From contig JAUILH010000006.1 of the NCBI GenBank assembly GCA_030433115.1, positions 1,691-65,690 on the forward strand: DNA of 64,000 nucleotides. Direction: 5' to 3'. A program made the translations under genes and the position numbers. Under the pieces are notes generated by a model, which worked only from the letters and a program-made list of their open reading frames with translations, searched no databases and had not been told where the DNA came from. The stretch comes from Bacteroidia bacterium. Lineage in GTDB: Bacteria > Bacteroidota > Bacteroidia > Flavobacteriales_D > JAUILH01. Of this stretch, positions 36,137-63,985 are shown piece after piece. Positions within the stretch are counted from its first letter, which is position 1. The number at the start of each line of letters is the position of its first letter.

Positions 36137-36615
36137 TTCTTAATGCGGTAGCGAATTACAGAATAAGAATAAAGAAAGACAACTACCTCACGACAACAGC
36201 CATTTATGCTTACTACAAACTGTATAATGGTGAAGAAAATCACACCTATCAAAACTTTAACGTCAATCTGCAAGCCTCAGTTAAAGACAAATGGCTTGTA
36301 AATGCCAATTACAACCAATATACCAGCACAGATACCGCTATTATTCCCCTTACTGGCTTGGCCGACTTGAGTCTTGAATACATTAGAAATAAGTGGTCTC
36401 TTAAAGGAGGAGGAAAGATGGCTGTACCCGGAGAAAATGGAGAACCACTGCAATGGGGATACTTGCTCGGAATCAGAAGTAAACTTTTTAAAAGAACAGA
36501 ATTAGAATTAACCGCAGAACGCCTGGTTATTGGGGATTTTTATAGCTCCGTTTTACTGGATAACGTTCTGGCTTACCCATACAATTTTAAAGCAATTATA
36601 AGCATTCAGATATGA
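36103..36615 (+). CDS. Beta-strand-rich ORF lacking a signal peptide; probably the frameshifted C-terminus of the preceding protein
   Basis: It overlaps the previous ORF by 34 nt in the -1 frame. Strand-like sequence (LILNAVANYRIRI.., TTTAIYAYYKLY.., WLVNANYNQY..). Confidence 0.4.
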   Translation: MDSLDFQNNNLILNAVANYRIRIKKDNYLTTTAIYAYYKLYNGEENHTYQNFNVNLQASVKDKWLVNANYNQYTSTDTAIIPLTGLADLSLEYIRNKWSLKGGGKMAVPGENGEPLQWGYLLGIRSKLFKRTELELTAERLVIGDFYSSVLLDNVLAYPYNFKAIISIQI

Positions 36616-44060: not shown

Positions 44061-44062
44061 TT

Positions 44063-45022: not shown

Positions 45023-45029
45023 TAGAGAT

Positions 45030-45752
45030 ATGAAACGACTAACTACAAGTATCCTTCTTTTAATAAGTCTGACATCTGGTGCGCAAACAGGCTCTAACAT
45101 TGATGTTGATGAAATGTCTCAAGTGCTCAAACAAGTTGCAGACAAATATACTGCAATGAGCGATTACAGCTTTAATGTCACATATACTTCATATAAAGGT
45201 CACTCAGGGAATGTCATTGCCGATAAATCCAGTGGAGTTTTCAAAAAGTCAGGACAAAAAATGTACGCCAATATCATGGGTATGGAAACGGTTCAGGATG
45301 ATAAAATTCGAATTCTGACATTGGAGCAGGAAAAGCTGATGTTTGTGTATGAACCAAAGCCCATGGAAGAAACTATGGATATTGATGCTTATTCCAAAGC
45401 ACTGAATGATGCCTCAAAAATAACTAAAAGGCATTCCGGGTCTCAACAAATCTTTGTCATCTATTTCAAATCATATTCAACACTAGAAAAGATGGTGCTC
45501 TACCTGAATGATGACCTGTTTATCACCAAAGTAAAGTTGTTTTATGCAGAAGCTCAATCGTGGGAAGTTGGAAGCGGAGTGACCAAAAGCGCGAAACCAA
45601 GACTTGAAATCAATTATAGCAACTTTTCTTTTAGCCCTGTTAAGCCAAACAGTTTTAACACGGCTCAATATGTGACGACAAGTGGAACCTCCTATAAAAC
45701 CACCAGTCAATACGCCAGATACGAATTAAATAACATGATCCTTTCTAAATAA
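45030..45752 (+). CDS. Secreted hypothetical protein (LolA/LolB-like fold suspected)
   Basis: Signal peptide MKRLTTSILLLISLTSGAQ. The size and strand pattern resemble lipoprotein-sorting-like proteins. This is a weak call. Confidence 0.35.
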   Translation: MKRLTTSILLLISLTSGAQTGSNIDVDEMSQVLKQVADKYTAMSDYSFNVTYTSYKGHSGNVIADKSSGVFKKSGQKMYANIMGMETVQDDKIRILTLEQEKLMFVYEPKPMEETMDIDAYSKALNDASKITKRHSGSQQIFVIYFKSYSTLEKMVLYLNDDLFITKVKLFYAEAQSWEVGSGVTKSAKPRLEINYSNFSFSPVKPNSFNTAQYVTTSGTSYKTTSQYARYELNNMILSK

Positions 45753-48700: not shown

Positions 48701-51700
48701 ATACGACCCATTCGTGACCAGTGGAAATTTTGGTGCCTATGCCAGTGCGTTAGAGACCAAATACGATACCTATGTATCCGGCAGTCCATCTTACAGTATG
48801 ATAGAAATGGCTGCGGCTACAGTGCGCTGTGGAACAGTTAGCGGATTGGGAGGAAGCTGCACAGATTTTGGAAAAGACATTGCTGGTTATACGGCAGCAG
48901 AGAATGACAGTATTCGTGACCTTGAATGGCAAACTTTCAAAGCCATGTATCAGGGCGAAAAACGAACTCAGCAAAATGGATATGCACATGAAGACGCCAT
49001 TGCCAACAAATGCTATAACGGGTGTATTGGACAGGTGCCATTCCATATCCACGCCAATGGCTTTTACGGATCTCCAGGAAACGGTTGGCTCAACAATGCT
49101 TTTTACGACAATGACCAACCGTGTTCTGTAAGCAACTATCATTTGTACAAAACCAAAGCCAAGCGCTTTCCTGATACAGAAGATATTCCCGGATATAATT
49201 CTAATGCAAGCAATCAAACCAACTACAATACAGCATCAAGTGAAAGTTTTATGCAAACCGGAGTGTGTCCAACCGCAACAAACCTTGAACAGTTTTTAAC
49301 TGAACTATCTGCACACGATACTTTAACAGACAATCATCAACTTATTGGGGCATATGGTACTTGGGCTGGCTTATATTATTCGATTTATGGATTTGATAAT
49401 CCAGCACCTCAAGTGTACTGGGACACCCTCTCTTCTGATTTAACTCTGGATGTGACTCTATTAGACTCTACAACTTCAGATACGCTTTGTAAGATGGGTC
49501 TGGATGCTACCGGAGTACTTACAGATTGGGATGATGTGCAGGCCTTCACAAACATTAATCCAACCGGATTCGATGGCGATTACTATAATTTCACAGTCAT
49601 TGTTGAACATGATAGCAGTGGTACCACCTTGTATGATACAATTCCGGGCTACACGTGTATGAACATAGAGTGTTGTTTGTTTGAAACACCTTGCTCTGCA
49701 AACCAGTTGGCTGCTGACTTACAGAATTTGATGTCTGCTCTGGCTTCAGATGATGAACTGCAGTCAATAAGTTTTGCTTATGGTCTGGATAATGACTATG
49801 CTAACACGGAAAGCCTTGTGATCAATAATCATGTGTCCGGTTCGCACAGTACTTTAAAGTGGGATTACAACTCATCCGATGACATATATGAAATAAGAAG
49901 TGCAAATGATACGCTTTGCCTGGAGATAACAGGTAAAACCCCTTCGTCATTTAGTAACTACACGGACATTTGGTATTTCGACAATTTTTTGAGTGCTACA
50001 GAACACTACTTTACTGTAGAAGGTTACGATTCAACGGGAACTTTGTTGGTGACACTAGAGGGACAAGCATTCGTAAAAACGGCTACTGATACTATACCTG
50101 TTTCTTTGGGAGATTGTGATCTAAAATCAATCCAATGTGCTACAGTGGCTCATGGAATACGAGAAGATTTAGAGAACTTACTTCATGAAAGTTTATTGGC
50201 GAATCCATTTTCGAGTAACATCAACTTTTATAACAGTATTTATATCACTGATAATTTTAGTGATGCCTTTGGCTTCAATGCGGCTGAGTCTTCCAGCAGC
50301 GAAGACACGATTACCGTGGATTCTGTTTTCTATGATAGTCTGCATATTGCTTTGACTCCTTCCGGAGAAGGAAGAACAGACACGCTGTGTAATTTATATC
50401 TATCAATCTCTTCTGATACTGCACAACACCTTCAATTTGAAGATTTAACGAACCTGGGCCCCCTGGTGGCAACAGGCACTCCCGGTTTTGATGGCAACTT
50501 CTATGACTTCTACATGTTGGCGGACTTTAGCTACATGATTGGAGAGACCATTTATACCGCTTCAGATACGGTTTGGGGAAGCTCAGCTTGTTTATCGCTT
50601 CAAAACTGTGACCTGTGCGATTCGGTGGTAAGTCCACCGGATACGATCATCTATCCTAATGAAGACGCTGTGCTCATGACCCAAAGTCAGAGCAAGGACT
50701 GCGAATCAGATCACGGAACTTACTTACAGGCAATTACAACATACAACACCTACGTAACGAATAACAGCCTAAACTGGCCTGAGGCGGATACCACTTACAC
50801 CCAGTCCGAAATGACTTTCCTCAATTATTGTGGATGTGTAGATCGCTTTGATAAATATGTGAGCAGCCTAACGGATGGTTTTGGAGAAGACCCCGATAGT
50901 GCCGACATAGTGCCCTATTTGGATCTTGCAGCACATTGTCCAAAACCGCCTTGTCAACCTTACATTCCAGTAACAGACACCATAGAGAATATTTATGTGG
51001 ATTATGTCAATCCTTGTGTGGAGGACCTCATGAACACCGCCATGTTAAATGCTGAGATAGCCTACCAAAATTACCTGGATAGCATGGCTTCTATTGCAGC
51101 AGATCAATACCAAACCCACTGTATAGGGGCTGTCGAAAACCTGAATGCCAGCTTTTCAGACAAGGAATACCACTTCACGCTGTATTATTACGATCAGGCA
51201 GGAAACCTGGTAAAAACGGTTCCACCAGAAGGCGTTCAGCTCCTTGACGACTTAACGGCCGATGGAGACAGCTTGTCTCAATTAATTGCTAACGACAGGT
51301 TTTATGGCACGCATTCCATATACACTTCCCATAGGTTAGCCACTACTTACACCTATAATTCATTAAACCAATTGGTTAAACAAAGCCTGCCAGATCACAA
51401 TAAAATGGATGTTTTTGACATGTCTTTGAGCAGTGGTTTGGACAATGGTATGACCATCGAAAGTGTACAGTTCGTGAACTCAGCAAGAGGTTACTTGGCG
51501 GGCTGGAAAATTGAGGGCAATGATACGCTCGGCTTAGCTTACAAATCTGATGATGGGGGTAAAACCTGGCAAAGATTGCGTAACACAGTAGCAGAAGATT
51601 TAAATAAAGTGAACAGCTTCAATGATGTGGCATATGCCGTTGGAAACAGAGGTGTTTTGCTGAAGTCTTCTGATGCCGGTATGTCGTGGAACATGATTGA

Positions 51701-54700
51701 CTTGTATGGACTCAATGTGACTGAAGATTTGAATGATGTGGCTTTGTCAAGCACCACAAGCGGATTGATTGTTGGAGATGGTGGCAGGTTAATCAGTCTT
51801 CAAAGTAGCGGTCTGTCTTCTATTTCTCCCACTGTTACCAACGCGAGTTATCCAATTAACTCGGATGATGATGTGCTATCAGTTAAGCGTATTGGAACAA
51901 CCTATTACATCTCGGTATGGCATACACCGGCAAGCGGAGACGGCTTTGGACTCATGTACAAAAGTGCAGACACTACCGGCAACCACTGGATTCCATTAAT
52001 TGATGTGCAAGGACCTGGTTACAACGACATAGATTTTGTAGACGCTAATACCGCATACGCTGTTGGAGACCAGGGGAGCGTTTACCAAACCATAGATGCG
52101 GGCGACAATTGGTATGTAGTTGACAACTATTTAACCGATAATTTGTCAAAAGTCTTTTTTATGGATGCCAACAACGGAATTGTATTGGCAGACAGTTTGG
52201 CTTCTTACGGCAAGCTAATGGCAACCAACGATGGTGGCAACACCTGGTACAGATTAAACACTTATGGCCAGTATTACAGCAATTTCCATGTGTATTATGA
52301 GGATGGTTCTTATGGTGCCAAATTGGCTTTGGTTGGTCCTGATGCTGCAGTGGCCAGACTCATCATGCAGAACAATACAGGCTTTGGTGTGATTCCTCTC
52401 GATGATATTTCTGCCTCAGTTGATTTTACAGGTGTTTGGGCAAAAGAATCGAACAACAAACTATTCTTAATGGCGGCAGGAAATGCAGCGAACATTTATT
52501 TCACCAGAGATGCAGAAGCTTCTGTTACGCCATGGTCATCAGACAACGTAGGGGTGTCAAATATTGTTGAGATCAAAGCTGATTCAGTAAGTGCCGTATT
52601 TACCGGAACAGCTATGGATAACAACGGAAAATTGTATGGTTTTACGCTGGATGCAGATCCCGGCACTACCAGTAATACATTTACCTGGGGCGCCTTTACA
52701 ACACCAACAGCGGGTAACCAGGAGTTTTCTGCCCTCGAGAACGATCCCGATAATAGCAGATTGCTTGCCTACAATCAACAAGACAATAAACTGTATACCA
52801 TCTCTCCTTCTGGTGCCAGTTTGGTAACAAGTGCTTCAGACAATGGTGTGGTAACGGCTGGTCTGGCGTCATTGGATCAATATACCGCCATTGCTGTTGA
52901 TGAAAACGGAAGCGGGCTGGTAAGTGGTCCAACAGGTTATTTAACACACGCTTCTGAGTCGGCTGGAAGCTATACCTGGTCAGAGCAAAAAACAAACATT
53001 CGTCCACAAGCCATTAACGACATGGCACTGGTTGAAAATGATCAGTTATGGGCCGTTGGAGAACGCGCAACTCTGTTAAGGCATGATACCACATCAAATG
53101 CTCTTTATCTCCAGCTTGCGGAAACTAAAGACAACTGGAATGCCATAGCCTACTCCGGTGTGGACTCAAGTATCGTAGTAGGAGATAGTGGGGCCATTCT
53201 AAGAGTTTACCGTTCGGGAGGCAATTTTGCTTTCACAAACATTGCTTCAAACACAACTTCAGATTTATATGATGTGGTAGTGGATGCCAGTACTTACACG
53301 GCTTATGTTGCCGGAGAAGGGAACCAAACCAGGATGACCTCTAATAACCTCAATACTGCTACGCCGAGCTTCAGTGTGATGTTTGGAACAGCCTTAAACA
53401 ATACCGGGCTCTCTTTATTTGTTGGAGCGAATAGCCGCATCAATTTTGGAGCCGGGCAGTCTGTAGTGCCCACATGGCAGGTATTCCCACACGCCTTAAC
53501 CGATCTGCATTTTTCAAATGCCCAAAACGGCTATGTAATTGGCGATCATTATACCGTGAGATATACAAACGATGGCGGACAAACCTGGCAATCTGTAATT
53601 CCTGACAATGGCTTTGGGTCCGGAGTACCAGAGCTCAATACCGTGTGGAATACATCTGCGGCAACCGCTTATGTAGGTGGAAACGACAATTATATCGCTA
53701 CAACAAACGGTACAGAATCTACCGAATCAGGCATTACCTTGCCGGGTGGTTATGGTGCCGGAATTGACTTCAATGACATCACCTTTGTTGACAGTGATAC
53801 TGCCTTCATGGTAGGGGGAGATACTGATGGACAAGCCTTAATATCTGTGGATGGAGGTGCTAATTGGACCAGCGTTTCGGGAGCTATTGGAGAAGTCCTC
53901 CACACGGTACATGGTTTCACCAGAAACAACACATTTATTGCAGGTGGAGAGAATGGTCAGGTAGCCTATTTCGATGGAACCAGCATGCTTGAATCGGGCT
54001 ACCAACCAGTTGCCAGCTTCACAGGAACCATCAACGACATTTATTTCCATGATGACATTACAGGTTATTTGGTGGGAGATAATGGAGAAATTCACCGATC
54101 AATAAACGGAAGCCTCAACACCAATGGACTATTAAGTAGTATTAATTGGCTTGAAAAAGGGACAAATGATGGCGGCTTGCTCAACCAAACCACGGAAGGT
54201 GACAAGAATATTAATGCCATTGATTTTGCCGAGCGATTTAACGGGTTTATTGGAGGAAGCTATGCCAGCGGTTCACCAGACGTGTATGCCAGATTACTTA
54301 ACGATGAAAGCAATGAATATTCTACCTATTTCTGGTATGATAAACTGGGCAGAATAGTGGTGTCTCAAAACAGCAGACAGTTTAACGCAGACACCGTTCG
54401 CTACAGTTATACCAGATACGATGAGCTTGGAAGAGTTGTGGAGGCAGGTGAAAAATTAGAAAACACCACAGACACTGTCTTCACAAGTATTTTTGGGGAA
54501 GTCATCAACGGACATTACAACCCCAATGTCATCAACGATACCTTGTTGTCTGCCTGGATTGAAGCCCCATCCGGCAGAAGACAGGAAGTGACCCATAGTT
54601 ACTATGATGTTGCCATTAATGCTCTATCGGACACCTTGCCATCAGGGTTTGCTCAGAACAACTTGAGAAAGAGAATTGCCACTGTGATGTACGAAAAAGT

Positions 54701-57700
54701 GCTGGACAACGACACCACTACCTACGACCACGCGACACACTACAGTTACGACATTCATGGCAACGTGGAGACCTTGATTCAAGACAACAGAAACTCCGGC
54801 ATTGCGGCTCAACGTTTTAAACGCATGGATTATGAGTACGATTTGATTTCGGGTAATGTCCATAAAGTGGCGTATCAGGCCGACTCTGCGGATGCCTGGT
54901 ACCACAAGTACGACTATGATGCTGATAACCGCATTTTACATGCTTATACCTCAATAGACGACATCAACTACGACATGGACGCCAAGTACATTTACTACGA
55001 CCATGGTCCGCTTGCCAGAGTTGAACTGGGTGAAAATAATGTGCAGGGAATGGATTATGCCTACACACTTCAAGGTTGGTTAAAAGCAGTGAATAGCGAT
55101 AAATTAAATCCGCTGAACGACATAGGGCATGATGGTCATTTGCTAGACACCACCAATGTGAATGGAAGCTTTGCCGTAGACGCCATGGGTTACTCCTTGA
55201 GCTATTACCAGGGAGACTATGCCAGCATAGATACGGCAGTTTGGCAGGACACGGCTACCAGATTCTTATCGGCAACCAACCATGCCGCATACATGCACGA
55301 CAGAAAAGACCTTTACAATGGCAATATTGGGAGCATGATTACCACCATTGCTTATGAAACCAACATCAATACACCATTGGAGTTTGGTATGGATGTGAGG
55401 CCACAGGCTACTGCATACAGGTACGATCAATTGAACCGATTATCATCGGCAAAAGCTTACAACAACTTCTGTTCAACCAATAACAAATGGATAGAAACAC
55501 ACGCCTACAAAGGGTTATACGAAAACCGGTTTACCTATGAAGCCAATGGAAACATCCTCACACAACTGAGACGTGACTACAGAACTAAGACCATCGATAG
55601 CCTGAACTACGAATACGCCAGAAATGCCGAAGGGCAACTCGTTCAAAACAGATTATACCATGTGGATGATGCTGTGTTGCCAGGCGACTTTTCAGACGAC
55701 ATAGATGACATGGGCACTTTTGAGGACAATGTGAACCTGATTAACAATGGTAGCAACAACTACCGTTACGACGACATAGGCCAGCTCATACAAGACAGTC
55801 AGGAGGGCATAGACACCATTATTTGGCGCGTAGATGGAAAAATTAAAGCCATTTACAGAACAGCATCTGCTGGGAAGTCAGACAAGAAAAGTTTGACCTT
55901 TGATTATGATGCCATGGGCAACCGCATTGCCAAACATGTGTACTCAACCGACACGGCAGACGGCGGACCAGATAGTTGGATGAAATCCGTATACTACAGC
56001 AGAGATGCGCAAGGCAATGTAATGAGTGTTTACGAATACAAAGAAGATCCGCTCACCGCAGCAGTCAACTACACACTCACGGAAAGAGATATCTACGGCT
56101 CATCTAGAGTAGGGCTTCACAAAGAAAGCATTGAAATGATTGGAGCCACAACAGATGCAACAAACGCCTACCACAGAATAGGTGACAAAAACTATGAACT
56201 GAGCAACCACCTGGGCAATGTCCTGGCTACGGTGAGTGATAAGAAGATCAACACCTATCAATTGAACATTTTGGAACGCTTCAATACCACAGCAGACTCT
56301 ACTGAATTTGACCAATGGGAGCTTCTTGGAAGCGCCACTAAGAATATTGACAATGGGTATTTGGAAGTGATTCCTGGCGCTAAGGGAGATGGTGTTAAAC
56401 GTTTCCTAAAGACCAGAAAAGGGAAAGCCTACGAGTTTTCTATGGATCATGGTTTCCCTAATTCTACTGACTTGACATTGATTCAGATTTATGATATGGT
56501 ATCAGGAGATACGATTCACGCAATCAGACGAATTAATAGTCCCAGTTCTAAGGCATATTGTGCAGACTTTATCGCGCTTAGCGACAGTACAGAGATCTAC
56601 ATAACTGCCAACACCAGTGCGTTTACTTTCAATTTCGACAACTTCTATTTGAGACGACGAAACCTCAATGATTTAAGATACCATATAGACAGGTTTGAAG
56701 ACAGCACAGATATTTGCAAATGGTCGTATGGCGGAACGGTGGCACAAACTCTGGATACAGGATGGCTTAAAGTTGAAGTAGACAATCAATATGAGGCCAC
56801 AGGCAGATGGTTTACAACCGTTCCCGGACATACTTACAACATTGACTTTGATTTGGATTTGGGAACCTGCACAGAAGTGGAGGTAAGGCCTGAAGATTTC
56901 ACCAACTTCCCCCATACTAATTTAACAGGCTATTCATATACCACTGGTGGGCATAAAAGCTTCTGGTTTGTTGCAACAGGTCGTACTCATAGACTCCGCT
57001 TTCATAAACTTGGCAACCATGGCAGCACCACGCATTATTTCTTAGACAATGTTGAAATTAGAGATAATAATTATTACCCATACTGCGAAGGCGTCTTTGC
57101 CACAGAGTTTACAGAGTCAGACCCGGATGATTTGGCAGACACCGTGAACTGGACGGCCGTTAACGGAGCGAGCTTTGAGTTGGAGGATGATAAGTTGCAG
57201 GTGAGTACAGATGCTATTGATGAAGGAATAGAGCGCGTTTTTGTCGTGAACAGGGGGCGCCCACATAAATTGAAGCTATTCTTTGCATCAGACTTTGCCT
57301 CTGCATCTATGTTAGTGCGTATTTATGATGCCAATACTGGAACATACCTGGCTCGCGGATCTTATACCAATGGTGTTCCGGAGAGGCCTATTTCTTTTTA
57401 TCCTGCTGCAGATTCAATCAGAATAGAAATTGTAGCCACGAACGCAAGCTCTTTTGATTGGACAGTAGACAACTTTGAACTTGTAGAACGAGACTATATG
57501 CCTATAGTGGCCGACTTTGAACCCAATCCAAAATCAGCTGAAGAGCTTACCGACTGGCATGTGAATTTGGGCTATTTAACAGCCACCCCAGATGAGGGAA
57601 GAATTAAAGTTGAGACTGAATACACCAATCAAACCTTCGCCAGAATTTTTTGGTGTAAACCATACCACACCTACCGTGTAAAGTTTAATATGGATAAGGG

Positions 57701-60479
57701 CAATACAGCCGGTGTAAGAGCAAGAATTACCACCTACACACCAAGCTTGTCGCCAAGCACACTGCACAACGTAACTTATACCGTAGATGGCGATCATGAA
57801 TTCACGTTTTCACCACCGAGTACTATTTCCAGAATGGTTCAACTGCTATTCTATAAGAGCGGAGGAAATGGCACCATGCAACACTACTATTTGGATGACA
57901 TCATCATAGAAGACATCACCGACACCCTGTTTAGTCCAGACCACAACGACATCATTGCAAGCAGTTACCCAAGCATCCACAGTGCTGTAGATTACAGCCC
58001 CTTTGGTGTGCAGTTGGATGGCAGAACCTATAATTTAGTCGCGGATGCCGTAGAGGCCATAGAACCAGACTATCGTTGGGACTTGATGGATGCAGATTTA
58101 TCAGAAGACAATGGTTCTGGTTATGATATGACTGCCAATGGTGGAGCTTTGGATACTTTGGATAGATGTGGTAATTCTAAAAGCGCCTACTACTTGGATG
58201 GTGTGGACGATTATTTGGAAATAACAGATCAGGTGGCATTTACCCCAGGAGCAGATGACTTTAGTGTGAGTATTTGGGTGAAGAAGTTGAGTGCTACGGT
58301 GAGTTATGCTGGCAATGTAGCTGTGAGTAAGTGGAACACCGGAGGCACACCGGGCACCAATGAATGGAGCTTGGGTATGAGTAGTGGCGCAAGCGGAGCA
58401 GATCCTGGCGGATTCTCGATCGAATCTGGAAGTACAAGTTACAGAGCCGAAGGTTTATCCCCAGTGAATCTGAATGAATGGTACCATCTGGTTGGCGTTA
58501 GAGATGGCGATTATATCAAGTACTTTATAAATGGTGAACTACAAAGTCAGACTTATGTTGGTACGGCCAGCGTTAATGACATTTCTGGTATGGACATGTA
58601 CTTTGGAAAACGCCAAAACAATGGCAATGGGCACATGGTATTGGACGATTTTGCTTATTTTAGAAGAGCCTTAAGCCAAAGTGAAGTGAAAAGTATGTTC
58701 GACCATAGCAGTTGTAATTTTGAGGGGGGACCAGCGGGTTGCAGCTATGTATATACTGGGTATGATGAGGTAATTACAGAGACAGTTACTAACCATTTAG
58801 ATGTATCAGGGGTAGATGATCATGTGAGAGCGGGAGGAGGTAATAGAAACATTACCAATGAAGTGACCCTTGAAGCCTGGATAAGAGCGGACTATGTAGT
58901 TTCTGCTGCCGGGACTTTCTTTAATAAGTATGGTGACGTTGGTGGCGGCAACTACAGAGGTTACCACCTCTTCTACAATGGTGGCCGGGTAAGATTTGCT
59001 GGTGTCAATGGCTCAGATGGTTACAAATCTACCGCATACTCAGACACCATAGCCGATGGTTTATGGCACCATGTGGTTGGTGTAGTAGATAGCAACGACA
59101 CCTGGAGTTTGTATTTAGATGGTGTATTAGTAGACTACACAGATTACACCCTGACAACAGGAGACCTTACAAATCCAGGGGTACTTCAGATAGGCGATGG
59201 GACCTTCTCGAATGATGATTTTAATGGAGAGATGAAACACGCCTCTATATGGAATAGAGCCAGAACAGCCCAGGAAGTGTTAAATGACTATACATCTGTT
59301 CATCCAACAGGAACGGAGGCTAATTTAATGGGTTATTTTCCATTGGATGAAGGCACGGGCACAACAGCCTATGATTTGTCTTCGACTGGAGCAGACGGGA
59401 CATTCTCAGGAAGTCCAACCTGGACAACCGATACTTTGGTTGATACAACGTATGTTCCTAATGACTCGGTGAAGGTGAGCGGTGCTGTGACTTATAGATA
59501 CGGATTCCAGGGACAGGAAAAAGACAACGAACTCAAAGGTGAGGGATTATCTATCAACTACAAGTATAGAATGCATGATCCTAGGCTGGGGAGGTTCTTT
59601 GCGGTGGATCCTTTGTTTAGAGAATATCCAAACCTGTCTAGTTATCATTTTGTTAGCAATGACCCTATAAGTGGTGTTGAAGTTGATGGCAGATGGTGGA
59701 GAAAACATAGGAAGACAGCCACAGGTAGAAATGCAGCAACTATAAATAGTTTGTACGGACCATTTAAAATGGTTATTAATGATCCAGCTGAAATAGAGGG
59801 ACTAGATAATCTGTCAATGATACCTTATGCCGGTTTATTGAGTACTGCCAATAAGTATAAGGCAATTTATGACGACCCTTCCTTAGAGATGTCTAAATTT
59901 GATTATCTCAGTGTGGTTGGAGGAGCTTATTTTAAAGGTACAAGGAAGATAATAAAGTCTCTTACAAAACTTAGTAAGGCCTCAAGAACTGCTCTTGGTA
60001 TTAGTGAAAAGACTTTTGAAGTTATGGGATATGTGTCGAGTGTGGATGAGCAATATCGAGAAATTGCCTATGAAACTTTTACTGCGAGGACTCTTGCCGA
60101 TTACGAAGAAGTGATTGATGGGAAAAGCTATAAAATAGGCTATGTCAATGAGGACAAAAGTGGTTATGTTGATGGGTTTACAATTAATAAAGACTACTAT
60201 GACGCAAAGTTTTCTGAGCAACACACAAAATTCTCAAAAGAAATAAATGGAATTACTGATGAAGAATTTGAAAAGAAACTTGATGAAGAATATCCTTATA
60301 GGCTTGTTTACATGGATAGGCAAGACTATATAAACAGAAAATCAAAAGAAGCTGTTGAAAAACACTTTTATTCTCGTCTGGAGCTAACCAAATGCTCTCT
60401 TAAAGAAAATGTGGATAAAGCAATAATTAAATATCTTAAGTCAAAGACAAACTCAAATAATTCAACTGAAAATGAATAG
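45762..60479 (+). CDS. 4905-aa Sec-signal RHS/YD-repeat polymorphic toxin (DUF6443-like N-region, BNR propeller insert, CBM-like and LamG inserts, variable C-terminal toxin)
   Basis: Signal peptide MRLKYFITALILTGSSAVALS. DUF6443-like ISYFDGSLRNRQSV..YDHQGRPAVNILPVP. Many YD repeats (YYYDQAGNLVKTV, YTRYDELGRVVEAGE, YDYDADNRILHAY, FDYDAMGNRIAKHVY ...). Core motifs NHLGNV, YSPFGV and YRYGFQGQEKDNE..YKYRMHDPRLGRFFAVDP..NDPISGVEVDG. Confidence 0.9.
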   Translation: MRLKYFITALILTGSSAVALSNDISVHQRIAASNGNAVEIGSAEAEKTVEVLPKTGAFKDINQKAFLSFGVDHNYEGYLEEDMNVRVVVHVTPYDKNDVAQTAFDQSLEIEYKPFSFISYQDKDQYIFEEAYKFEFRIDSVFINGVSDTLLPANMYVDGDITIDRTYEFASSVNTVITPDDSVIYLNCDTLADELEIRWNTLLGAEEYQLEWVFVNDYTATENAYSATGKTYNFRNNSTRISTAETFYRIPLVFDHGYVLYRVRAIGRDTADLDKRIFGTWSYDQDGLITDAAVIKYHNTVPHEKEKNWQLTTTFAEEGKKKEVISYFDGSLRNRQSVTRINSDNNTIVGETIYDHQGRPAVNILPVPVQTPTCDSSGNEEISALQFYPNFNLNDSAQAYSRHDFDLDDSASWSVSAGSLNDSTGASNYYSPSNPNKTAHQAYVPQANGYPFTQVEYTPDNTGRIKRQSGVGENFKLGSGKETQYFYGKPMQIKLNRLFGSEVGYASHYKKNLVIDPNGQISVSYLDQEGRVVATSLAGEVPDNLIALTSEENASVDLTADLFEKDPNGNSLTNAIGPDGKSIVYNQELLVSTASDYEFIYSIDSDTLYDSCLVDTICFHCVYDLTFMITDACGDTIPSDTIVTDTTIGYFTTDSLGTIQFNTECQTPSGVSYSDTLLVSLTPGNYTISKILTLREDAIDYYVEAFLDSANNECVKTLYDFQQDFLALVDTSSCYVDCDSCESQLGTRDDFVSQGLGTALEYDIMLEECQAPCQDIDPCDVARQMMLVDMMPAGQYGTYYDAQGNIDVSSYNLSIYSSNNMLSATNALWSNPYLEKNGNTYDYFIDELGDSAKVILQSDGSGGYVPSVTSALLVHTNGNGDFYTYPDNLANVTDFIDLFQESWAQSLLYYHPEYCYYKTCLEYHEEDSDENTSNTFDNLLLNTETFDAAINAGIIKSNYAALSNPDDRLEDLFTVSTSHAYDPFVTSGNFGAYASALETKYDTYVSGSPSYSMIEMAAATVRCGTVSGLGGSCTDFGKDIAGYTAAENDSIRDLEWQTFKAMYQGEKRTQQNGYAHEDAIANKCYNGCIGQVPFHIHANGFYGSPGNGWLNNAFYDNDQPCSVSNYHLYKTKAKRFPDTEDIPGYNSNASNQTNYNTASSESFMQTGVCPTATNLEQFLTELSAHDTLTDNHQLIGAYGTWAGLYYSIYGFDNPAPQVYWDTLSSDLTLDVTLLDSTTSDTLCKMGLDATGVLTDWDDVQAFTNINPTGFDGDYYNFTVIVEHDSSGTTLYDTIPGYTCMNIECCLFETPCSANQLAADLQNLMSALASDDELQSISFAYGLDNDYANTESLVINNHVSGSHSTLKWDYNSSDDIYEIRSANDTLCLEITGKTPSSFSNYTDIWYFDNFLSATEHYFTVEGYDSTGTLLVTLEGQAFVKTATDTIPVSLGDCDLKSIQCATVAHGIREDLENLLHESLLANPFSSNINFYNSIYITDNFSDAFGFNAAESSSSEDTITVDSVFYDSLHIALTPSGEGRTDTLCNLYLSISSDTAQHLQFEDLTNLGPLVATGTPGFDGNFYDFYMLADFSYMIGETIYTASDTVWGSSACLSLQNCDLCDSVVSPPDTIIYPNEDAVLMTQSQSKDCESDHGTYLQAITTYNTYVTNNSLNWPEADTTYTQSEMTFLNYCGCVDRFDKYVSSLTDGFGEDPDSADIVPYLDLAAHCPKPPCQPYIPVTDTIENIYVDYVNPCVEDLMNTAMLNAEIAYQNYLDSMASIAADQYQTHCIGAVENLNASFSDKEYHFTLYYYDQAGNLVKTVPPEGVQLLDDLTADGDSLSQLIANDRFYGTHSIYTSHRLATTYTYNSLNQLVKQSLPDHNKMDVFDMSLSSGLDNGMTIESVQFVNSARGYLAGWKIEGNDTLGLAYKSDDGGKTWQRLRNTVAEDLNKVNSFNDVAYAVGNRGVLLKSSDAGMSWNMIDLYGLNVTEDLNDVALSSTTSGLIVGDGGRLISLQSSGLSSISPTVTNASYPINSDDDVLSVKRIGTTYYISVWHTPASGDGFGLMYKSADTTGNHWIPLIDVQGPGYNDIDFVDANTAYAVGDQGSVYQTIDAGDNWYVVDNYLTDNLSKVFFMDANNGIVLADSLASYGKLMATNDGGNTWYRLNTYGQYYSNFHVYYEDGSYGAKLALVGPDAAVARLIMQNNTGFGVIPLDDISASVDFTGVWAKESNNKLFLMAAGNAANIYFTRDAEASVTPWSSDNVGVSNIVEIKADSVSAVFTGTAMDNNGKLYGFTLDADPGTTSNTFTWGAFTTPTAGNQEFSALENDPDNSRLLAYNQQDNKLYTISPSGASLVTSASDNGVVTAGLASLDQYTAIAVDENGSGLVSGPTGYLTHASESAGSYTWSEQKTNIRPQAINDMALVENDQLWAVGERATLLRHDTTSNALYLQLAETKDNWNAIAYSGVDSSIVVGDSGAILRVYRSGGNFAFTNIASNTTSDLYDVVVDASTYTAYVAGEGNQTRMTSNNLNTATPSFSVMFGTALNNTGLSLFVGANSRINFGAGQSVVPTWQVFPHALTDLHFSNAQNGYVIGDHYTVRYTNDGGQTWQSVIPDNGFGSGVPELNTVWNTSAATAYVGGNDNYIATTNGTESTESGITLPGGYGAGIDFNDITFVDSDTAFMVGGDTDGQALISVDGGANWTSVSGAIGEVLHTVHGFTRNNTFIAGGENGQVAYFDGTSMLESGYQPVASFTGTINDIYFHDDITGYLVGDNGEIHRSINGSLNTNGLLSSINWLEKGTNDGGLLNQTTEGDKNINAIDFAERFNGFIGGSYASGSPDVYARLLNDESNEYSTYFWYDKLGRIVVSQNSRQFNADTVRYSYTRYDELGRVVEAGEKLENTTDTVFTSIFGEVINGHYNPNVINDTLLSAWIEAPSGRRQEVTHSYYDVAINALSDTLPSGFAQNNLRKRIATVMYEKVLDNDTTTYDHATHYSYDIHGNVETLIQDNRNSGIAAQRFKRMDYEYDLISGNVHKVAYQADSADAWYHKYDYDADNRILHAYTSIDDINYDMDAKYIYYDHGPLARVELGENNVQGMDYAYTLQGWLKAVNSDKLNPLNDIGHDGHLLDTTNVNGSFAVDAMGYSLSYYQGDYASIDTAVWQDTATRFLSATNHAAYMHDRKDLYNGNIGSMITTIAYETNINTPLEFGMDVRPQATAYRYDQLNRLSSAKAYNNFCSTNNKWIETHAYKGLYENRFTYEANGNILTQLRRDYRTKTIDSLNYEYARNAEGQLVQNRLYHVDDAVLPGDFSDDIDDMGTFEDNVNLINNGSNNYRYDDIGQLIQDSQEGIDTIIWRVDGKIKAIYRTASAGKSDKKSLTFDYDAMGNRIAKHVYSTDTADGGPDSWMKSVYYSRDAQGNVMSVYEYKEDPLTAAVNYTLTERDIYGSSRVGLHKESIEMIGATTDATNAYHRIGDKNYELSNHLGNVLATVSDKKINTYQLNILERFNTTADSTEFDQWELLGSATKNIDNGYLEVIPGAKGDGVKRFLKTRKGKAYEFSMDHGFPNSTDLTLIQIYDMVSGDTIHAIRRINSPSSKAYCADFIALSDSTEIYITANTSAFTFNFDNFYLRRRNLNDLRYHIDRFEDSTDICKWSYGGTVAQTLDTGWLKVEVDNQYEATGRWFTTVPGHTYNIDFDLDLGTCTEVEVRPEDFTNFPHTNLTGYSYTTGGHKSFWFVATGRTHRLRFHKLGNHGSTTHYFLDNVEIRDNNYYPYCEGVFATEFTESDPDDLADTVNWTAVNGASFELEDDKLQVSTDAIDEGIERVFVVNRGRPHKLKLFFASDFASASMLVRIYDANTGTYLARGSYTNGVPERPISFYPAADSIRIEIVATNASSFDWTVDNFELVERDYMPIVADFEPNPKSAEELTDWHVNLGYLTATPDEGRIKVETEYTNQTFARIFWCKPYHTYRVKFNMDKGNTAGVRARITTYTPSLSPSTLHNVTYTVDGDHEFTFSPPSTISRMVQLLFYKSGGNGTMQHYYLDDIIIEDITDTLFSPDHNDIIASSYPSIHSAVDYSPFGVQLDGRTYNLVADAVEAIEPDYRWDLMDADLSEDNGSGYDMTANGGALDTLDRCGNSKSAYYLDGVDDYLEITDQVAFTPGADDFSVSIWVKKLSATVSYAGNVAVSKWNTGGTPGTNEWSLGMSSGASGADPGGFSIESGSTSYRAEGLSPVNLNEWYHLVGVRDGDYIKYFINGELQSQTYVGTASVNDISGMDMYFGKRQNNGNGHMVLDDFAYFRRALSQSEVKSMFDHSSCNFEGGPAGCSYVYTGYDEVITETVTNHLDVSGVDDHVRAGGGNRNITNEVTLEAWIRADYVVSAAGTFFNKYGDVGGGNYRGYHLFYNGGRVRFAGVNGSDGYKSTAYSDTIADGLWHHVVGVVDSNDTWSLYLDGVLVDYTDYTLTTGDLTNPGVLQIGDGTFSNDDFNGEMKHASIWNRARTAQEVLNDYTSVHPTGTEANLMGYFPLDEGTGTTAYDLSSTGADGTFSGSPTWTTDTLVDTTYVPNDSVKVSGAVTYRYGFQGQEKDNELKGEGLSINYKYRMHDPRLGRFFAVDPLFREYPNLSSYHFVSNDPISGVEVDGRWWRKHRKTATGRNAATINSLYGPFKMVINDPAEIEGLDNLSMIPYAGLLSTANKYKAIYDDPSLEMSKFDYLSVVGGAYFKGTRKIIKSLTKLSKASRTALGISEKTFEVMGYVSSVDEQYREIAYETFTARTLADYEEVIDGKSYKIGYVNEDKSGYVDGFTINKDYYDAKFSEQHTKFSKEINGITDEEFEKKLDEEYPYRLVYMDRQDYINRKSKEAVEKHFYSRLELTKCSLKENVDKAIIKYLKSKTNSNNSTENE
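49280..50620 (+). other. Three tandem, highly diverged ~150-aa modules inside the N-terminal region of the giant protein
   Basis: Each module has a leading helix (NLEQFLTEL / LAADLQNLMSAL / IREDLENLLHESL). Each then has a DTLC(K/L/N) strand and a G(F)DG(D/N)(Y/F)Y(N/D)F or HYFTVEGYD strand. Confidence 0.5.
51540..54330 (+). other. BNR/Asp-box (Ycf48/sialidase-like) beta-propeller region inserted between YD-repeat blocks
   Basis: Six Asp-box motifs: SDDGGKTW, SSDAGMSW, TIDAGDNW, TNDGGNTW, TNDGGQTW and SVDGGANW. YD repeats lie immediately before (51170-51400) and after (from 54331, FWYDKLGRIV). Confidence 0.7.
56270..57920 (+). other. Four tandem diverged jelly-roll (CBM/galactose-binding-like) modules inserted in the RHS core
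   Basis: Each of the four ~135-145-aa units ends in a DNF(Y/E)L / LDN(V)EI / LDDIII strand and opens with an F(E/N)..(D/T)...W motif. They sit between NHLGNV (56205) and YSPFG (57993). Confidence 0.6.
58060..59300 (+). other. Two LamG/concanavalin-A-like (Laminin_G_3-type) domains between the PFG motif and the terminal RHS core motif
   Basis: The patterns FSVSIWVK..W.HLVGVRDG..KYFINGEL..RALSQSEV and LEAWIRAD..WHHVVGVVDSNDTWSLYLDG..IWNRARTAQEV are typical of LamG_3. Confidence 0.7.
58665..59630 (+). repeat. Dispersed repeat, copy A (3' LamG-RHS-core region of the giant gene) homologous to the orphan cassette
   Basis: About 95% nt identity to 61811-62006 over the first ~190 nt. The centre is divergent. 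Identity is about 85% again over 59310-59630 versus 62470-62770. Confidence 0.85.
59691..60476 (+). other. Variable C-terminal toxin domain of the giant RHS protein (family not recognised)
   Basis: It follows the conserved ..DPRLGRFFAVDP..NDPISGVEVDG boundary, where RHS toxins are normally autoproteolysed. About 262 aa, K/E-rich, with no recognisable catalytic motif. Confidence 0.6.
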
Positions 60480-60843
60480 AATAGTCAAGATAGTAATACT
60501 AATTACTTTTTGTTCTTGTTCAAATGATCAATCTGAAAATGGAGGACAATCGCAAGAAAGGAATCGTAAGGAGATTGCCGTTAAACTATATCAGAACAGG
60601 ATAGTTGGAAGTCATGGTATGAATCAAGATAGAATTGTTTTTGAAAAGAATAATGTAATGATAGACTGTGTGAAAATTCACAGCAAAGATTCATTGACTC
60701 TTCTCAGCAAGTTCATTATAGACGATTCCCTAAGCATTTCAGCAGAATCTGTGATTAGGGATTTTGGTGTGGAATGGATTGTTCAAGATATGCGATACTT
60801 TGATACTGTGAGTTTATCAAAGACTATCATAGTAAGGGACTAG
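60472..60843 (+). CDS. Putative cognate immunity protein (lipoprotein)
   Basis: The ATG overlaps the toxin stop by 8 nt. Lipoprotein-type signal MNRIVKIVILITFCSCSNDQ in a 123-aa protein. Confidence 0.6.
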   Translation: MNRIVKIVILITFCSCSNDQSENGGQSQERNRKEIAVKLYQNRIVGSHGMNQDRIVFEKNNVMIDCVKIHSKDSLTLLSKFIIDDSLSISAESVIRDFGVEWIVQDMRYFDTVSLSKTIIVRD

Positions 60844-60864
60844 AGTCAGGGAGTCCCCCCGCTA

Positions 60865-60885
60865 GCGCAAGCTTGTAGCTTGTGC
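60865..60885. repeat. Imperfect palindrome / hairpin (possible terminator or REP-like element)
   Basis: GCGCAAGCT-TGT-AGCTTGTGC forms a 9-bp stem including one G.U pair. It lies between the immunity gene and the RAYT-like gene. Confidence 0.4.
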
Positions 60886-60937
60886 TCTTATCAATTCTAA
60901 ACAGAGCATAAAATAGAAAGGTTGTACCTTTCGGCCA

Positions 60938-61285
60938 GTGAGCAGTAAATACAAAATAAACAATCCAGACGGCATCTACTTTATAAGCTTTGCAACAGTT
61001 GGATGGATAGATGTATTTACCAGAAAAGCTTACAAGGATATACTGGTAGATAGCTTAGAGTATTGTCAAAAAGAAAAGGGTTTAGAGCTGTATAGTTGGT
61101 GTATAATGAGCAATCATGTTCACTTAATAGCCAAAAGTAAAACAGGTGATTTAAGCGGCACATTAAGAGATCTGAAACGACATACCAGTAAAACCATTAT
61201 AGAGGCCATTAAAAACCATCCACAAGAGTCTAGGCGCGAATGGAAGTCACATTCCAATTGTCACCTAAACCACATAACCGATTGA
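60938..61285 (+). mobile_element. IS200/RAYT-like Y1 (HUH) transposase, 3'-truncated remnant
   Basis: SSKYKINNPDGIYFISFATVGWIDVFTR..YSWCIMSNHVHLIAK (HUH motif)..ESRREW. Homology then stops abruptly where the tandem repeat begins, and the C-terminal catalytic-Tyr region is missing. Confidence 0.7.
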
Positions 61286-61572
61286 TAATGAGCAACAATT
61301 ATTTTGAAAACCCTCAAATTTCAGGGGTGTTTGGGCCTCATTGGTGTAAAGAAAGTCTCTTAGAAGCGCTTAAAACGAGTATTAAAAACCTCATGTTCCA
61401 ATTGTCAGTCACATTCCAATTGTCACCTAAACCACATAACCGATTGATAATGAGCAACAATTATTTTGAAAACCCTCAAATTTCGGGGGTGTTTGGGTCT
61501 CATTTGTGTAAAGAAAGTCTCTTAGAAGCGTTTAAAACGAGTATTAAAAACCTCCTGTTCCAATTGTCACCT
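61246..61572. repeat. Tandem direct repeat, 162-bp unit x2 plus a partial third start
   Basis: Copy 1 is 61246-61407 and copy 2 is 61408-61569, with 5 mismatches in 162 nt. The 12-mer TTCCAATTGTCA occurs four times, marking the unit ends. Confidence 0.9.
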
Positions 61573-61741
61573 GGCAATTTTAAAATGAAAGGATATTTGC
61601 TGAAAAAGTGTAACTTGTGTTGTGTAAAAACGTAATAAAAAATGAGACTTCTTATGGCTAACTACAGCACAATGTTATGGAGTCTGCCAGGGATAGAACG
61701 GCCTGTTTGAGCTCTTTTTTGAGCAACAAAAAAAGCGAGTA

Positions 61742-63004
61742 GTGATAGCCCGACCCCAAATGAGACAAACTAGCGGAACATATGATTTTTATGGGGTGGC
61801 AGCCAAAGAAAGAGCCCTAAGCCAAAGTGAAGTGAAAAGTATGTTTGAACATAGTAGTTGTAATTTTGAGGGGGGACCAGCAGGTTGCAGCTATGTATAT
61901 ACCGGGTATGATGAGGTAATTACAGAGACAGTTACTAACCATTTAGATGTATCAGGGGTAGATGACCACGTGAGAGCTGGTACAGGTAATAGAAATGTAA
62001 GTGATGAAGTAACAGTAGAGGCCTGGGTGAGGACGGAAGACTTAAATACAACAACAGGTACCTTTGTGGCCAAATACCAATATGTTGGCGGCCCCGCCAT
62101 AGCCAAGGGTTACTACTTGTATATGAAGAACGGAAAAGTGGGTCTTGGAGGAAGAAACACCAGTGATGGCGTTGGTAAAGTTACGGGTACTTCCGATACG
62201 ATTTCAGATGGTAATTGGCACCATGTAGTGGGTGTTATAGATACCAATGATACCTGGCGCTTATATGTAGATGGTTCATTGGTGTCACAGGTAGACTACA
62301 ACGGGGTCAATTTGGATTTGACCAACAGCGATCATTTGAGAATAGGTGATGGTCATTTTAGCAACGATGATTTTGAAGGAGAGATCAAGGAGGTGTCTAT
62401 CTGGAATCGGGCCAAAAGTGCATTGGAGGTTTTGAATGATTATGCTTCAGGTAGCTTTACAGGAACAGAAGCTAATTTGATGGGTTACTTCCCGTTGGAT
62501 GAGGGGACAGGTAGTACAGCCTATGATTTGTCTGTAGCGGGTGCAGATGGTACGTTCTATAACAGTCCAACCTGGACAACGGATACATTGGTTGACACGA
62601 CTTATGTTCCTAATGACTCGGTGAAGGTGAGTGGGGCTGTGAGTTATAGATATGGATTCCAGGGGCAAGAGCGTGATAACGAGATAAAGGGAGACGGAAA
62701 CAGTTATAATTATAAGTATAGGATGCATGATCCAAGGTTGGGGAGGTTTTTTGCGGTGGATCCGTTGTATAAGGACTATCCGGAATTAACACCTTATCAG
62801 TTTGCTGCCAATCAAGTAATACATGCTGTTGAACTTGAGGGACTGGAAAACTCAAATTATATCTCTCCGTTTGGAGAGCCTACTATGTGGGATGGGTATC
62901 AGGAACCAATAAACCCCACAACACTTATTAATCCTAGTACAATTGATTTTTGGAGTGATACATGGGTGGGGAGGTTTATGGTGTCAGCGGTAAAACATCA
63001 GTAA
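61742..63004 (+). pseudogene. Orphan RHS C-terminal cassette: tail of one LamG, a full LamG domain, RHS core motif and the start of an alternative toxin tip; no credible start
   Basis: Homology to the giant gene begins inside a LamG domain. The cassette contains YRYGFQGQERDNE..YKYRMHDPRLGRFFAVDPLYKDYPELTPYQFAANQVIHAVELEG. It has only a GTG start, no signal peptide and no N-terminal RHS body. Confidence 0.8.
61811..62770 (+). repeat. Dispersed repeat, copy B (orphan cassette)
   Basis: See copy A. At the protein level, RALSQSEVKSMF(D/E)HSSCNFEGGPAGCSYVYTGYDEVITETVTNHLDVSGVDDHVRAG is nearly identical in both. Confidence 0.85.
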
Positions 63005-63621
63005 GGACTGTAAACAAATTAGCTACACCTAGTGGTCAAGCAGAATTGACTATTGAAACTGGTCAAGGAGTTATAACCACAGTTGAAGTGATGTATACCT
63101 ACTATGACATGATGTTTAATGAGGGTAGGAACACTACATATGATGATATCAAACAAGGCAGTGTTTGGCTTAATTCATTTGATTTGACCAATCCTGAAAC
63201 AGCAGGAAGTTTTGCAGCTAACTTTTTTATGTTTGGAGGAGGAAATTGGCTCAGGGGATTGACTATTAAGCCAAAACTTCCACCTAAAGGTGGTGTCCTG
63301 AAATATGAGCCACCTGTGACAAATGAAATTTATAAAAGACCTAACAATGCAACAACACCTACCCAAAGAGCTTCAGTACAGAATCAGCCTTGTGTAGATT
63401 GTGGTGCAACAGGGCAAAAGAATGTTGCGGATCACAAAACTCCACTGGTAAAGGAACATTATGAAACAGGAACAATAGATTTAGAACGCATGAAATCTGT
63501 TGATGCTGTTCAGCCCCAGTGTCCATCATGTTCAGCGAAACAAGGTGCTTCAATGAGTAGTTATTCAAAAGCAATGAAAAGTGTTATTGAAAAAAGGACA
63601 AATTCAGGAGGAGAACAGTAA
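62962..63621 (+). CDS. Continuation of the orphan toxin tip in the -1 frame; C-terminal HNH/EndoVII-like nuclease suspected
   Basis: This frame opens right after a TGA at 62956 and overlaps the previous ORF by 43 nt. The C-terminus CVDCGATGQKNVADHKTPLVKEHY...QCPSCSAKQG has a Cys4 + DH pattern like small HNH/EndoVII toxin domains. Confidence 0.5.
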   Translation: MGGEVYGVSGKTSVRTVNKLATPSGQAELTIETGQGVITTVEVMYTYYDMMFNEGRNTTYDDIKQGSVWLNSFDLTNPETAGSFAANFFMFGGGNWLRGLTIKPKLPPKGGVLKYEPPVTNEIYKRPNNATTPTQRASVQNQPCVDCGATGQKNVADHKTPLVKEHYETGTIDLERMKSVDAVQPQCPSCSAKQGASMSSYSKAMKSVIEKRTNSGGEQ

Positions 63622-63640
63622 TTATAATTAACTTAGTAAG

Positions 63641-63985
63641 ATGCCAAATCAATCAGTTGAACAGTTAGAAATTTGTCAAAAGTATGGGTCAAGATTTGAT
63701 CTACCCCCAAGTCATTATAAGTTAGGGGTGTCAAGAAATGTTCAATTAGACATTTACCCAATTCATGGACTCAGGCATCCTGTAGATGGAGACACTTCAG
63801 GATGGTATATTTGGTCTGGTGAATATTCCGAAGAGGCAGACTTCTTTTTGCCATTGCACATACATCATATTAATGAATGGAATCCATTGATCGAGAAATA
63901 TCTGGCACTTGAACCTGGCTGGAGGTTCCTAATAGCCCATGGACATGAGGATGTCTGGTTTGATGAAAAGCTTCTGAATATATAG
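63641..63985 (+). CDS. Putative immunity protein for the orphan toxin
   Basis: It lies 19 nt downstream of the toxin tip. 114 aa, cytoplasmic, with a GWYIWSGEYSEEADFF..LHIHHI motif reminiscent of polymorphic-toxin immunity families. The exact family is uncertain. Confidence 0.5.
   Translation: MPNQSVEQLEICQKYGSRFDLPPSHYKLGVSRNVQLDIYPIHGLRHPVDGDTSGWYIWSGEYSEEADFFLPLHIHHINEWNPLIEKYLALEPGWRFLIAHGHEDVWFDEKLLNI

Follow-up and report, generated by a model that had tools for sequence, protein, structure and literature searches.

The locus described here raises the question of whether a second, 5′-truncated copy of the end of a very large RHS gene is a working substrate for toxin switching or the residue of a tip that has already been exchanged. 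It forms the end of a 64,000-nucleotide (nt) stretch of the genome of a Bacteroidia bacterium assigned to Flavobacteriales_D (GenBank assembly GCA_030433115.1, contig JAUILH010000006.1, positions 1,691–65,690 of the forward strand), which we call the window and in whose coordinates all positions are given. The locus consists of a 14.7-kb RHS-type open reading frame (ORF), the main gene, and of an orphan cassette downstream of it with its own toxin and immunity gene. A preliminary description of the sequence had taken this cassette for a toxin-switching substrate. Our analysis indicates that the orphan is probably a silent, partly decayed cassette, most likely an earlier tip that was displaced from the main gene, with an immunity gene that is intact and useful. 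It could serve as a switching substrate only if the frameshift that it carries is an error or is repaired. The argument turns on the following elements.

45762–60479, plus strand: main gene, a 14.7-kb RHS-type ORF of 4905 amino acids (aa) with DUF6443.
58197–58692, plus strand: LamG1 of the main gene (about aa 4146–4310; Laminin_G_3, 1.8e-18, profile positions 1–151 of 151).
58665–58849, plus strand: main-gene copy of the 5′ high-identity block, which runs from the end of LamG1 through the inter-LamG linker into the first strands of LamG2.
58809–59280, plus strand: LamG2 of the main gene (aa 4350–4506; Laminin_G_3 profile positions 2–150 of 151).
59484–59690, plus strand: RHS repeat-associated core of the main gene, YRYGFQGQE..MHDPRLGRFFAVDPL..VEVDG; the homology to the orphan stops at its 3′ edge.
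61742–63004, plus strand: orphan ORF-A, with 23 non-homologous codons, the end of LamG1, the linker, LamG2, the core, 54 linker codons and a stop.
61811–62842, plus strand: orphan segment homologous to 58665–59690, with LamG2 at about 61955–62432 and the core at about 62636–62845.
62959–63004, plus strand: frame-disruption interval (net −1), which holds the runs GGGTGGGG and AAAA.
62962–63621, plus strand: orphan ORF-B, a variable linker followed by a C-terminal HNH/EndoVII-type toxin domain (about 63283–63609) with an NGO1392-like signature.
63641–63985, plus strand: Imm33-like immunity gene, 114 aa, intact (PF24719, 2.5e-38, profile positions 1–103 of 103).

The duplication is real and far above chance expectation. 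A local nucleotide alignment of the window pairs 58664–59689 with 61810–62841 at about 71% nucleotide identity. Protein alignment in both frames joins 58665–59690 to 61811–62842 over 342 codons with two 1-codon gaps and about 70% identity, and the codon phase of the main-gene and orphan copies matches throughout. When the shared segment was searched against the window with tblastn, exactly two copies were returned (71.8% amino-acid identity, E 7e-162), the orphan copy sitting 3.15 kb downstream of the main-gene copy in the same orientation. The repeat of 58665–59630 at 61811–62770 proposed in the preliminary description is present and extends some 60–70 nt further 3′ than had been claimed. It ends in the alignment with a sharp break at a VE(V/L)(D/E)G motif (..VEVDG in the main gene, ..VELEG in the orphan), which is the usual core/tip boundary of RHS genes. 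Beyond this point the sequences were said to be unrelated, which our comparisons bear out: the tips of the main gene and the orphan show no relation (BLASTP E 0.64), and the two small genes 3′ of the tips gave no alignment to each other.

At its 5′ end the homology takes in just the last 9 codons of the LamG1 Pfam envelope, and of LamG1 the orphan thus contains only the very end. The orphan LamG2 is complete (Laminin_G_3, 90.8 bits, 1.3e-25, profile positions 2–150 of 151, above the gathering score), and the orphan has no N-terminal RHS body. The orphan had been thought to lack a start context and to begin inside a LamG domain. It does begin at the end of LamG1, but two possible starts, GTG at 61742 and ATG at 61760, lie upstream of the homology, and the gene caller chose the ATG (P0121, 414 aa). 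Both copies of the core pass TIGR03696 (cutoff 32.5), with 41.4 bits at aa 4575–4643 of the main protein and 40.8 bits in the orphan. As first described, the cassette is an orphan RHS C-terminal module that lies downstream of the main gene in the same orientation and brings its own toxin and immunity gene.

Identity between the two copies is mosaic, and synonymous divergence (pS) was used to tell conversion from selection. The 5′ block is identical at 173 of 185 positions (93.5%, close to the 95% over the first ~190 nt given earlier) and contains the longest perfect tract, 62 nt at 58758–58819; the identical tracts between the copies measure 62, 29, 28 and 26 nt. Over the first 60 codons pS is 0.24 (9/37.7 sites), against 0.73 elsewhere (binomial P about 2e-10). 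The body of LamG2 is the diverged middle that had been noticed, with 40–67% identity per 60-nt window and saturated synonymous sites. Towards the core, the claim of about 85% identity over roughly 300 nt proved too generous, since 59330–59630 is 78.4% identical at the nucleotide level and a value of 86.5% is attained only in 59400–59510, shortly before the core motif. Across the YRYGFQGQE..DPRLGRF motif region, nucleotide identity is about 62–85% and the protein sequence is conserved; the YRYGFQGQE motif is conserved at the protein level only, its synonymous sites being saturated. A single 60-nt window, 59445–59504, shows a dip in pS to 0.34 (P 0.0013 before correction for about 17 windows), and synonymous divergence at 59565–59624 is not significantly lowered. 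The low pS of the 5′ block and the weak dip at 59445–59504 therefore define one solid zone of recent shared ancestry, the 5′ block, and a second, suggestive one, which lies upstream of the core motif and not on it. Two preferred crossover zones had been proposed; the first stands, while the second comes down to 60 nt in front of the core motif. The tract 58665–58849 is most likely where crossovers would occur.

As sequenced, the orphan is disrupted, its core and its toxin lying in different frames. In 15 of 17 Bacteroidota relatives core and toxin share one ORF, whereas here they occupy frames 1 and 3. Since frame B is not open before 62959 and frame A ends in a stop at 63004, a net −1 (1-nt) indel must lie within this interval of 46 nt. 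Because of this frameshift, a chimera of main gene and orphan would end at 63004 without a toxin. As it stands, the proposed toxin-switching substrate is defective.

The orphan tip is predicted to be an NGO1392-like HNH nuclease domain (Tox-SuFu-Nuc). The domain has no Pfam match and no PDB sequence match. A protein search returned 130 homologues, and in 25 sequences C38, C41, H52, C81 and C84 are invariant, with D51 and Q88 present in at least 90%. An AlphaFold2 model has a pLDDT of 90.9, and its top Foldseek matches in the PDB are nearly all HNH nucleases (5h0m, Cap5, the HNH domain of Cas9), none of them significant, with E values of 0.23 or worse. The order CxxC, DH, CxxC, Q together with an Imm33 partner is the signature of the NGO1392-like HNH clade (Zhang et al. 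2012, PMC3482391), and the product of 63641–63985 matches PF24719 at 130 bits (cutoff 27).

This toxin and its partner are found together far beyond the present locus. A toxin-domain profile scanned across 185,579 species genomes identified 80 loci in many phyla, and in 79 of them an Imm33-like homologue lies directly 3′ of the toxin domain. Among the toxin-ending open frames that are uncut by a locus edge (n = 62), 22 are longer than 800 aa and 14 are longer than 1500 aa, the others being short. The long frames that were checked are DUF6443 proteins, from Riemerella anatipestifer (L190), Empedobacter tilapiae (L177), a Flavobacteriaceae metagenome-assembled genome (MAG) and Pedobacter (L165 and L166 among the loci). 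A Bacteroidia MAG (L159) and Dyadobacter (L160/L161) also carry this toxin/Imm33 pair as an orphan, located downstream of a DUF6443-RHS gene. Since the pair occurs both on full-length genes and in orphan position, it is a circulating module used both ways, and its distribution across these genome sequences is that expected for exchanged cassettes. Fusion of the orphan tip to full-length genes elsewhere, which the preliminary description implied, thus holds at the level of the family, the genomes concerned not being close relatives of this strain. The idea that the tip is confined to orphans, suggested by protein-search matches that were all 382 aa or shorter, was overturned by the locus scan. 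The taxa that carry the pair (L162–L241) comprise Bacteroidota, Proteobacteria including Neisseria gonorrhoeae and N. polysaccharea, Myxococcota, Actinomycetota, Acidobacteriota and a Candidatus Kaiserbacteria MAG; Bacteroidetes are absent from the taxa listed for the NGO1392-like clade in the 2012 catalogue (PMC3482391).

The presence of an entire LamG domain in the recombination unit had been presented as a peculiarity of this locus, but the arrangement recurs elsewhere. In Cryomorpha ignava (JAAGVY010000020, L157, 1–13500) there are three tandem LamG-containing orphans and a fourth, shorter module. Each of these orphans has ..HLGNV..SPFG.., a LamG, a core, a distinct tip and small genes, and their 5′ blocks are 90–100% identical, with mosaic identity further in. 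The 100%-identity 5′ stretches of this array are interleaved with YD-repeat fragments broken by stop codons. On an ENA metagenome contig (L081), a LamG is present between ..HLGNV.. and ..PYG.. in the main gene as well as in the orphan, and the orphan shares with its main gene only short conserved 5′ tracts of 80–93% identity. The simple reason that LamG moves with the tip in this lineage is its position within about 1 kb upstream of the tip boundary.

The closest relative of the orphan, P0122, is a protein of 583 aa encoded on a 20.6-kb NCBI contig and 66% identical to it. P0122 shares the non-homologous N-terminal junction of the orphan (MRQTSGTYD..GVAAKE, 17 of 20 residues), and 40 aa of the inter-LamG linker do not vary among P0122, the orphan and the main gene. 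In its LamG2, P0122 resembles the main gene in part, and its core ending and tip are different. Judged from these alignments, P0122 is a mosaic of main-like and orphan-like segments and provides direct evidence for mosaicism among sibling modules. One possibility is that P0122 continues this array as its next orphan, placed by the same assembly on a separate contig. A functional coupling between the type of LamG and the type of toxin was also considered and rejected: P0122 combines a largely main-like LamG2 with another tip, and orphans 1 and 3 of C. ignava share 80–97% of their LamG DNA and differ in their tips.

A stand-alone module of LamG1, core and DUF6973 toxin, P0128 (L158, 10001–11593, GCA_041255245.1), is found amid integrase and resolvase genes. 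It has no adjacent main RHS gene and no LamG2, and it matches the LamG1 of the window's main gene at 55% identity. In CAXRGQ01, the MAG that is the nearest available relative, a 530-aa ORF (L004, 8726–10318) stands in a run of ORF sizes matching that of L158, a similarity by layout alone. The surroundings of P0128 suggest that LamG–core–toxin cassettes travel on integrative elements.

To place the orphan in the history of the locus, the present tip of the main gene and the sequence between the two cassettes have to be taken into account.

59691–60479, plus strand: tip of the main gene, 262 aa, AT-rich.
60472–60843, plus strand: candidate immunity gene of the main tip, 123 aa, overlapping the stop codon of the main gene.
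60950–61243, plus strand: remnant of an IS200-like REP-associated tyrosine transposase gene (RAYT, Y1_Tnp; PF01797, 1.2e-8).
61245–61568, plus strand: tandem repeat of 2 × 162 nt, 97% identical, starting exactly where the RAYT homology ends.

The main tip appears to be near-unique. It has no Pfam, NCBIfam or PDB sequence match, and an exhaustive HMMER search of 1.84 billion representative proteins gave 3 weak matches (E 3e-6 to 2e-5), two of which are short flavobacterial RHS-core fragments sharing the WW..GGYFKGTRK features. The product of the small ORF behind it has an N-terminus that looks lipoprotein-like by eye and no family match in Pfam or NCBIfam. No conserved partner of the main tip was found, the one genomic context examined (L242) being too short to show an immunity gene. 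The GC content is 34% in 59691–60843, which holds the main tip and the small ORF, against 43.5% in the gene body, and 39% in the orphan tip and its immunity gene, against about 43.5% in the gene body, LamG and core regions. Such a drop in tips is the classical compositional signature of rhs tips.

These features are consistent with a history in which the tip of the main gene was replaced by recombination at the conserved inter-LamG linker, which would have left the earlier tip and its immunity gene downstream and promoterless. The AT-rich main tip would then probably be the newer arrival. The retained immunity gene could, by analogy with Salmonella rhs loci, protect the cell against neighbours that deploy this nuclease. 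The same analogy indicates what a further exchange would entail. Recombination within the linker block would produce an in-frame fusion of main gene and orphan and would delete 3146 nt, comprising the main tip, its immunity gene and the RAYT remnant; a crossover just upstream of the core would be a less likely alternative. A recombinant lacking the main immunity gene would presumably be vulnerable to its siblings unless the locus had been duplicated first, and a functional switch of toxins would also require repair of the frameshift.

Several points weigh against this account of a displaced and decayed tip. The order in which the two tips arrived is inferred from GC content and the frameshift only, and the frameshift itself could stem from a sequencing error in a homopolymer. 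Set against the Salmonella case, 62 nt of perfect identity make a poor substrate for recombination. When metagenomes were scanned with the conserved linker peptides, no true relative turned up. The immunity role of the candidate gene at 60472–60843 is assigned by its position. In the main protein, the Pfam RHS_repeat profile scores 20.9 bits, below its cutoff of 22.

The alternative that survives best, although we consider it unlikely, is that the orphan is a fully functional switching substrate which recombines at measurable frequency, its frame break being a sequencing or assembly error in GGGG or AAAA. The disruption is indeed limited to 46 nt with short homopolymers, the toxin domain is full-length with all its invariant residues, as is the Imm33-like gene, and fusion to the main gene would be in frame. 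The same tip occurs on full-length genes elsewhere, and there is a precedent in Salmonella (PMC3967940). The window sequence as given nevertheless carries the frameshift, and systematic homopolymer errors would be expected in runs longer than G4 and A4. Additionally, the four tracts of identity listed above are short, and no variant strains were found in the genome and metagenome scans.

A further and more improbable proposal is that the inter-LamG linker is a dedicated cassette-exchange site, at which silent, promoterless modules act as pilS-type donors and segmental conversion diversifies LamG2. In such a scheme the LamG2 of the giant protein would possibly be a target-binding surface. If this were true, conversion between the linker and the block in front of the core would diversify LamG2 with or without exchange of the tip, even from a frameshifted donor.

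We give very little credence to independent expression of the orphan as a 414-aa LamG–core protein (from the ATG at 61760) and a 219-aa free toxin (from the ATG at 62962) with Imm33, and equally little to the role that the products would then have, namely an intracellular toxin–antitoxin-like pair or a separately exported effector. The ATG of the toxin frame is the second codon of open frame B, and 17 N-terminal residues before the breakpoint are common to P0122; this shared N-terminus equally fits a common junction that was inherited or homogenised between cassettes. Both ORFs are without a signal peptide, an RHS shell or a known delivery domain, and in relatives the toxin lies C-terminal to a core (the 15 of 17 Bacteroidota mentioned above) or to a HINT module in one ORF. 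The promoter-motif scans were uninformative: the Bacteroidota −7 motif TAnnTTTG occurs 46 times in the window, where 62.6 occurrences are expected, and so shows no enrichment, and sigma-70 and terminator scans of the window gave results at or below shuffle level, which say nothing for or against expression of the orphan or its immunity gene. Finally, an assembly artefact in which two strain alleles of one 3′ end were stitched in tandem is scarcely credible, for although the source contig, 65,738 nt long, extends no more than 1.7 kb beyond the window and P0122 lies on another NCBI contig, as is typical of repeat breaks, unique sequence of 1.3 kb lies between the two copies, the 5′ junction of the orphan is its own and non-homologous, and the main-plus-orphan layout is found in the isolate genomes of C. 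ignava (L157) and Dyadobacter (L160/L161).

The displaced and partly decayed cassette remains the reading that we prefer, and the rest of the locus can be described around it. The unique sequence of about 1.3 kb between the copies holds the candidate immunity ORF of the main tip, the RAYT remnant and the tandem repeat. The RAYT remnant keeps only aa 7–104 of a relative of about 180 aa, as determined by tblastn with the full-length relative from L135; it scores 66 bits against NF047646, below the cutoff of 80, over profile positions 4–97 of 146. It is preceded by an imperfect 10-bp hairpin at about 60864–60886. No second copy of the remnant or of the 162-nt repeat occurs within the window, and a search of the 162-nt repeat for REP-like palindromes revealed no significant inverted repeats.

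The main protein consists, in order, of a signal-peptide-like N-terminus, DUF6443, a BNR/Ycf48-like propeller, YD repeats, four repeated domains, LamG1, LamG2, the core and the tip. The N-terminus was read by eye. DUF6443 was matched in Pfam at 35 bits; PSII_BNR and Laminin_G_3 were also matched, the latter (PF13385) in two stretches with 128.9 bits, above the gathering score. A regular expression for the YD motif found 7 matches, against a mean of 0.3 (maximum 2) in 200 shuffles, and the TEN_YD-shell profile gave no match in the main protein. A BNR/Ycf48/sortilin-like β-propeller occupies window positions 51400–54000 (aa ~1890–2750), between the first two YD motifs (aa 1808 and 1863) and the remaining shell, an architecture that recalls teneurins and TcB. 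The strands ..HLGNV.. at aa 3483 and ..SPFG.. at aa 4079 are conserved, and the roughly 590 aa between them (window positions 56208–57996) contain, by eye, the four repeated domains, which have no Pfam match and form a large insertion in the C-terminal part of the RHS shell.

Immediately upstream of the main gene, seven co-directional ORFs fill 34493–45752 on the plus strand (547, 170, 367, 218, 1900, 319 and 240 aa). None of the seven has a Pfam match. The last of them, 45030–45752, encodes a LolA3-family protein according to NCBIfam (5.9e-42, above cutoff), and 44063–45022 has a sub-threshold NCBIfam match to a gene transfer agent (GTA) spike fibre. Their arrangement is compatible with a dedicated export or assembly operon for the DUF6443-RHS protein, which these ORFs could form. 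The locus is chromosomal, as MnmG and GltX are encoded in the window; this MnmG is 83% identical to that of the uncultured Flavobacteriales MAG CAXRGQ01 and 72–74% identical to those of Fluviicola/Crocinitomicaceae, to which the source genome is related.

Taken as a whole, the locus is an ordinary feature of polymorphic toxin loci, here in an under-studied lineage. The main-plus-orphan RHS organisation, which has been studied mainly in Enterobacteria, extends to very large signal-peptide DUF6443-RHS proteins of Flavobacteriales, in which accessory domains such as LamG lie near enough to the tip boundary to move with the toxin cassette. For annotation, this means that the 414-aa and 219-aa "hypothetical proteins" are the two halves of one frameshifted orphan module, and that the 114-aa gene encodes immunity to an HNH toxin of wide distribution. 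The points of note are the frameshift, the HNH/Imm33 identification, the lineage-wide occurrence of LamG-bearing orphans and the near-unique main tip.

The standalone cassettes described among polymorphic toxins (PMC3482391) share with the orphan a toxin with CxxC, DH, CxxC and Q followed by an Imm33-family gene, and the same toxin is carried there by RHS and HINT proteins as well as by standalone cassettes. The present toxin differs in being without a Pfam model, its immunity protein matches the newer "Imm33-like" family PF24719, and many Bacteroidota loci were found here, whereas none is tabulated for the NGO1392-like clade.

Nearer counterparts come from the genomes that we scanned. In L159 and L160, as in the window, orphans lie downstream of a DUF6443-type main gene, and in L081 an orphan lies downstream of an RHS main gene that is cut by the start of the contig. 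In C. ignava and L081 each orphan has, like ours, a whole LamG upstream of a YRYGFxGxE core and shows mosaic identity with a 5′ block of high similarity. Unlike the orphan in the window, those orphans begin further upstream, in the last YD repeats, and have a single LamG and other tips. The LamG of L081 is placed at another insertion point, and in C. ignava the adjacent upstream RHS gene has another type of core and is cut by the end of the contig.

A functional parallel is the rhs-main/rhs-CT-orphan pair STM0291/STM0292 of Salmonella Typhimurium, in which main gene and orphan share 522 bp at 95% identity and chimeras form after duplication (PMC3967940). The two loci differ in several respects. 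In the present locus the toxin is carried by a signal-peptide DUF6443 protein from Flavobacteriales with 4905 aa, PAAR or VgrG context is absent from the window, and the shared region includes a LamG domain. The high-identity block measures 185 nt at 93.5% rather than 522 bp at 95%, the orphan toxin is frameshifted, and recombination is a proposal for the present locus, whereas switching has been shown in Salmonella. The layout is nevertheless the same: in both, a full-length gene is followed by a co-oriented, 5′-truncated conserved fragment that is joined to another C-terminal toxin with its own immunity gene, the tips are AT-rich, and a high-identity block would permit recombination into an in-frame chimera.

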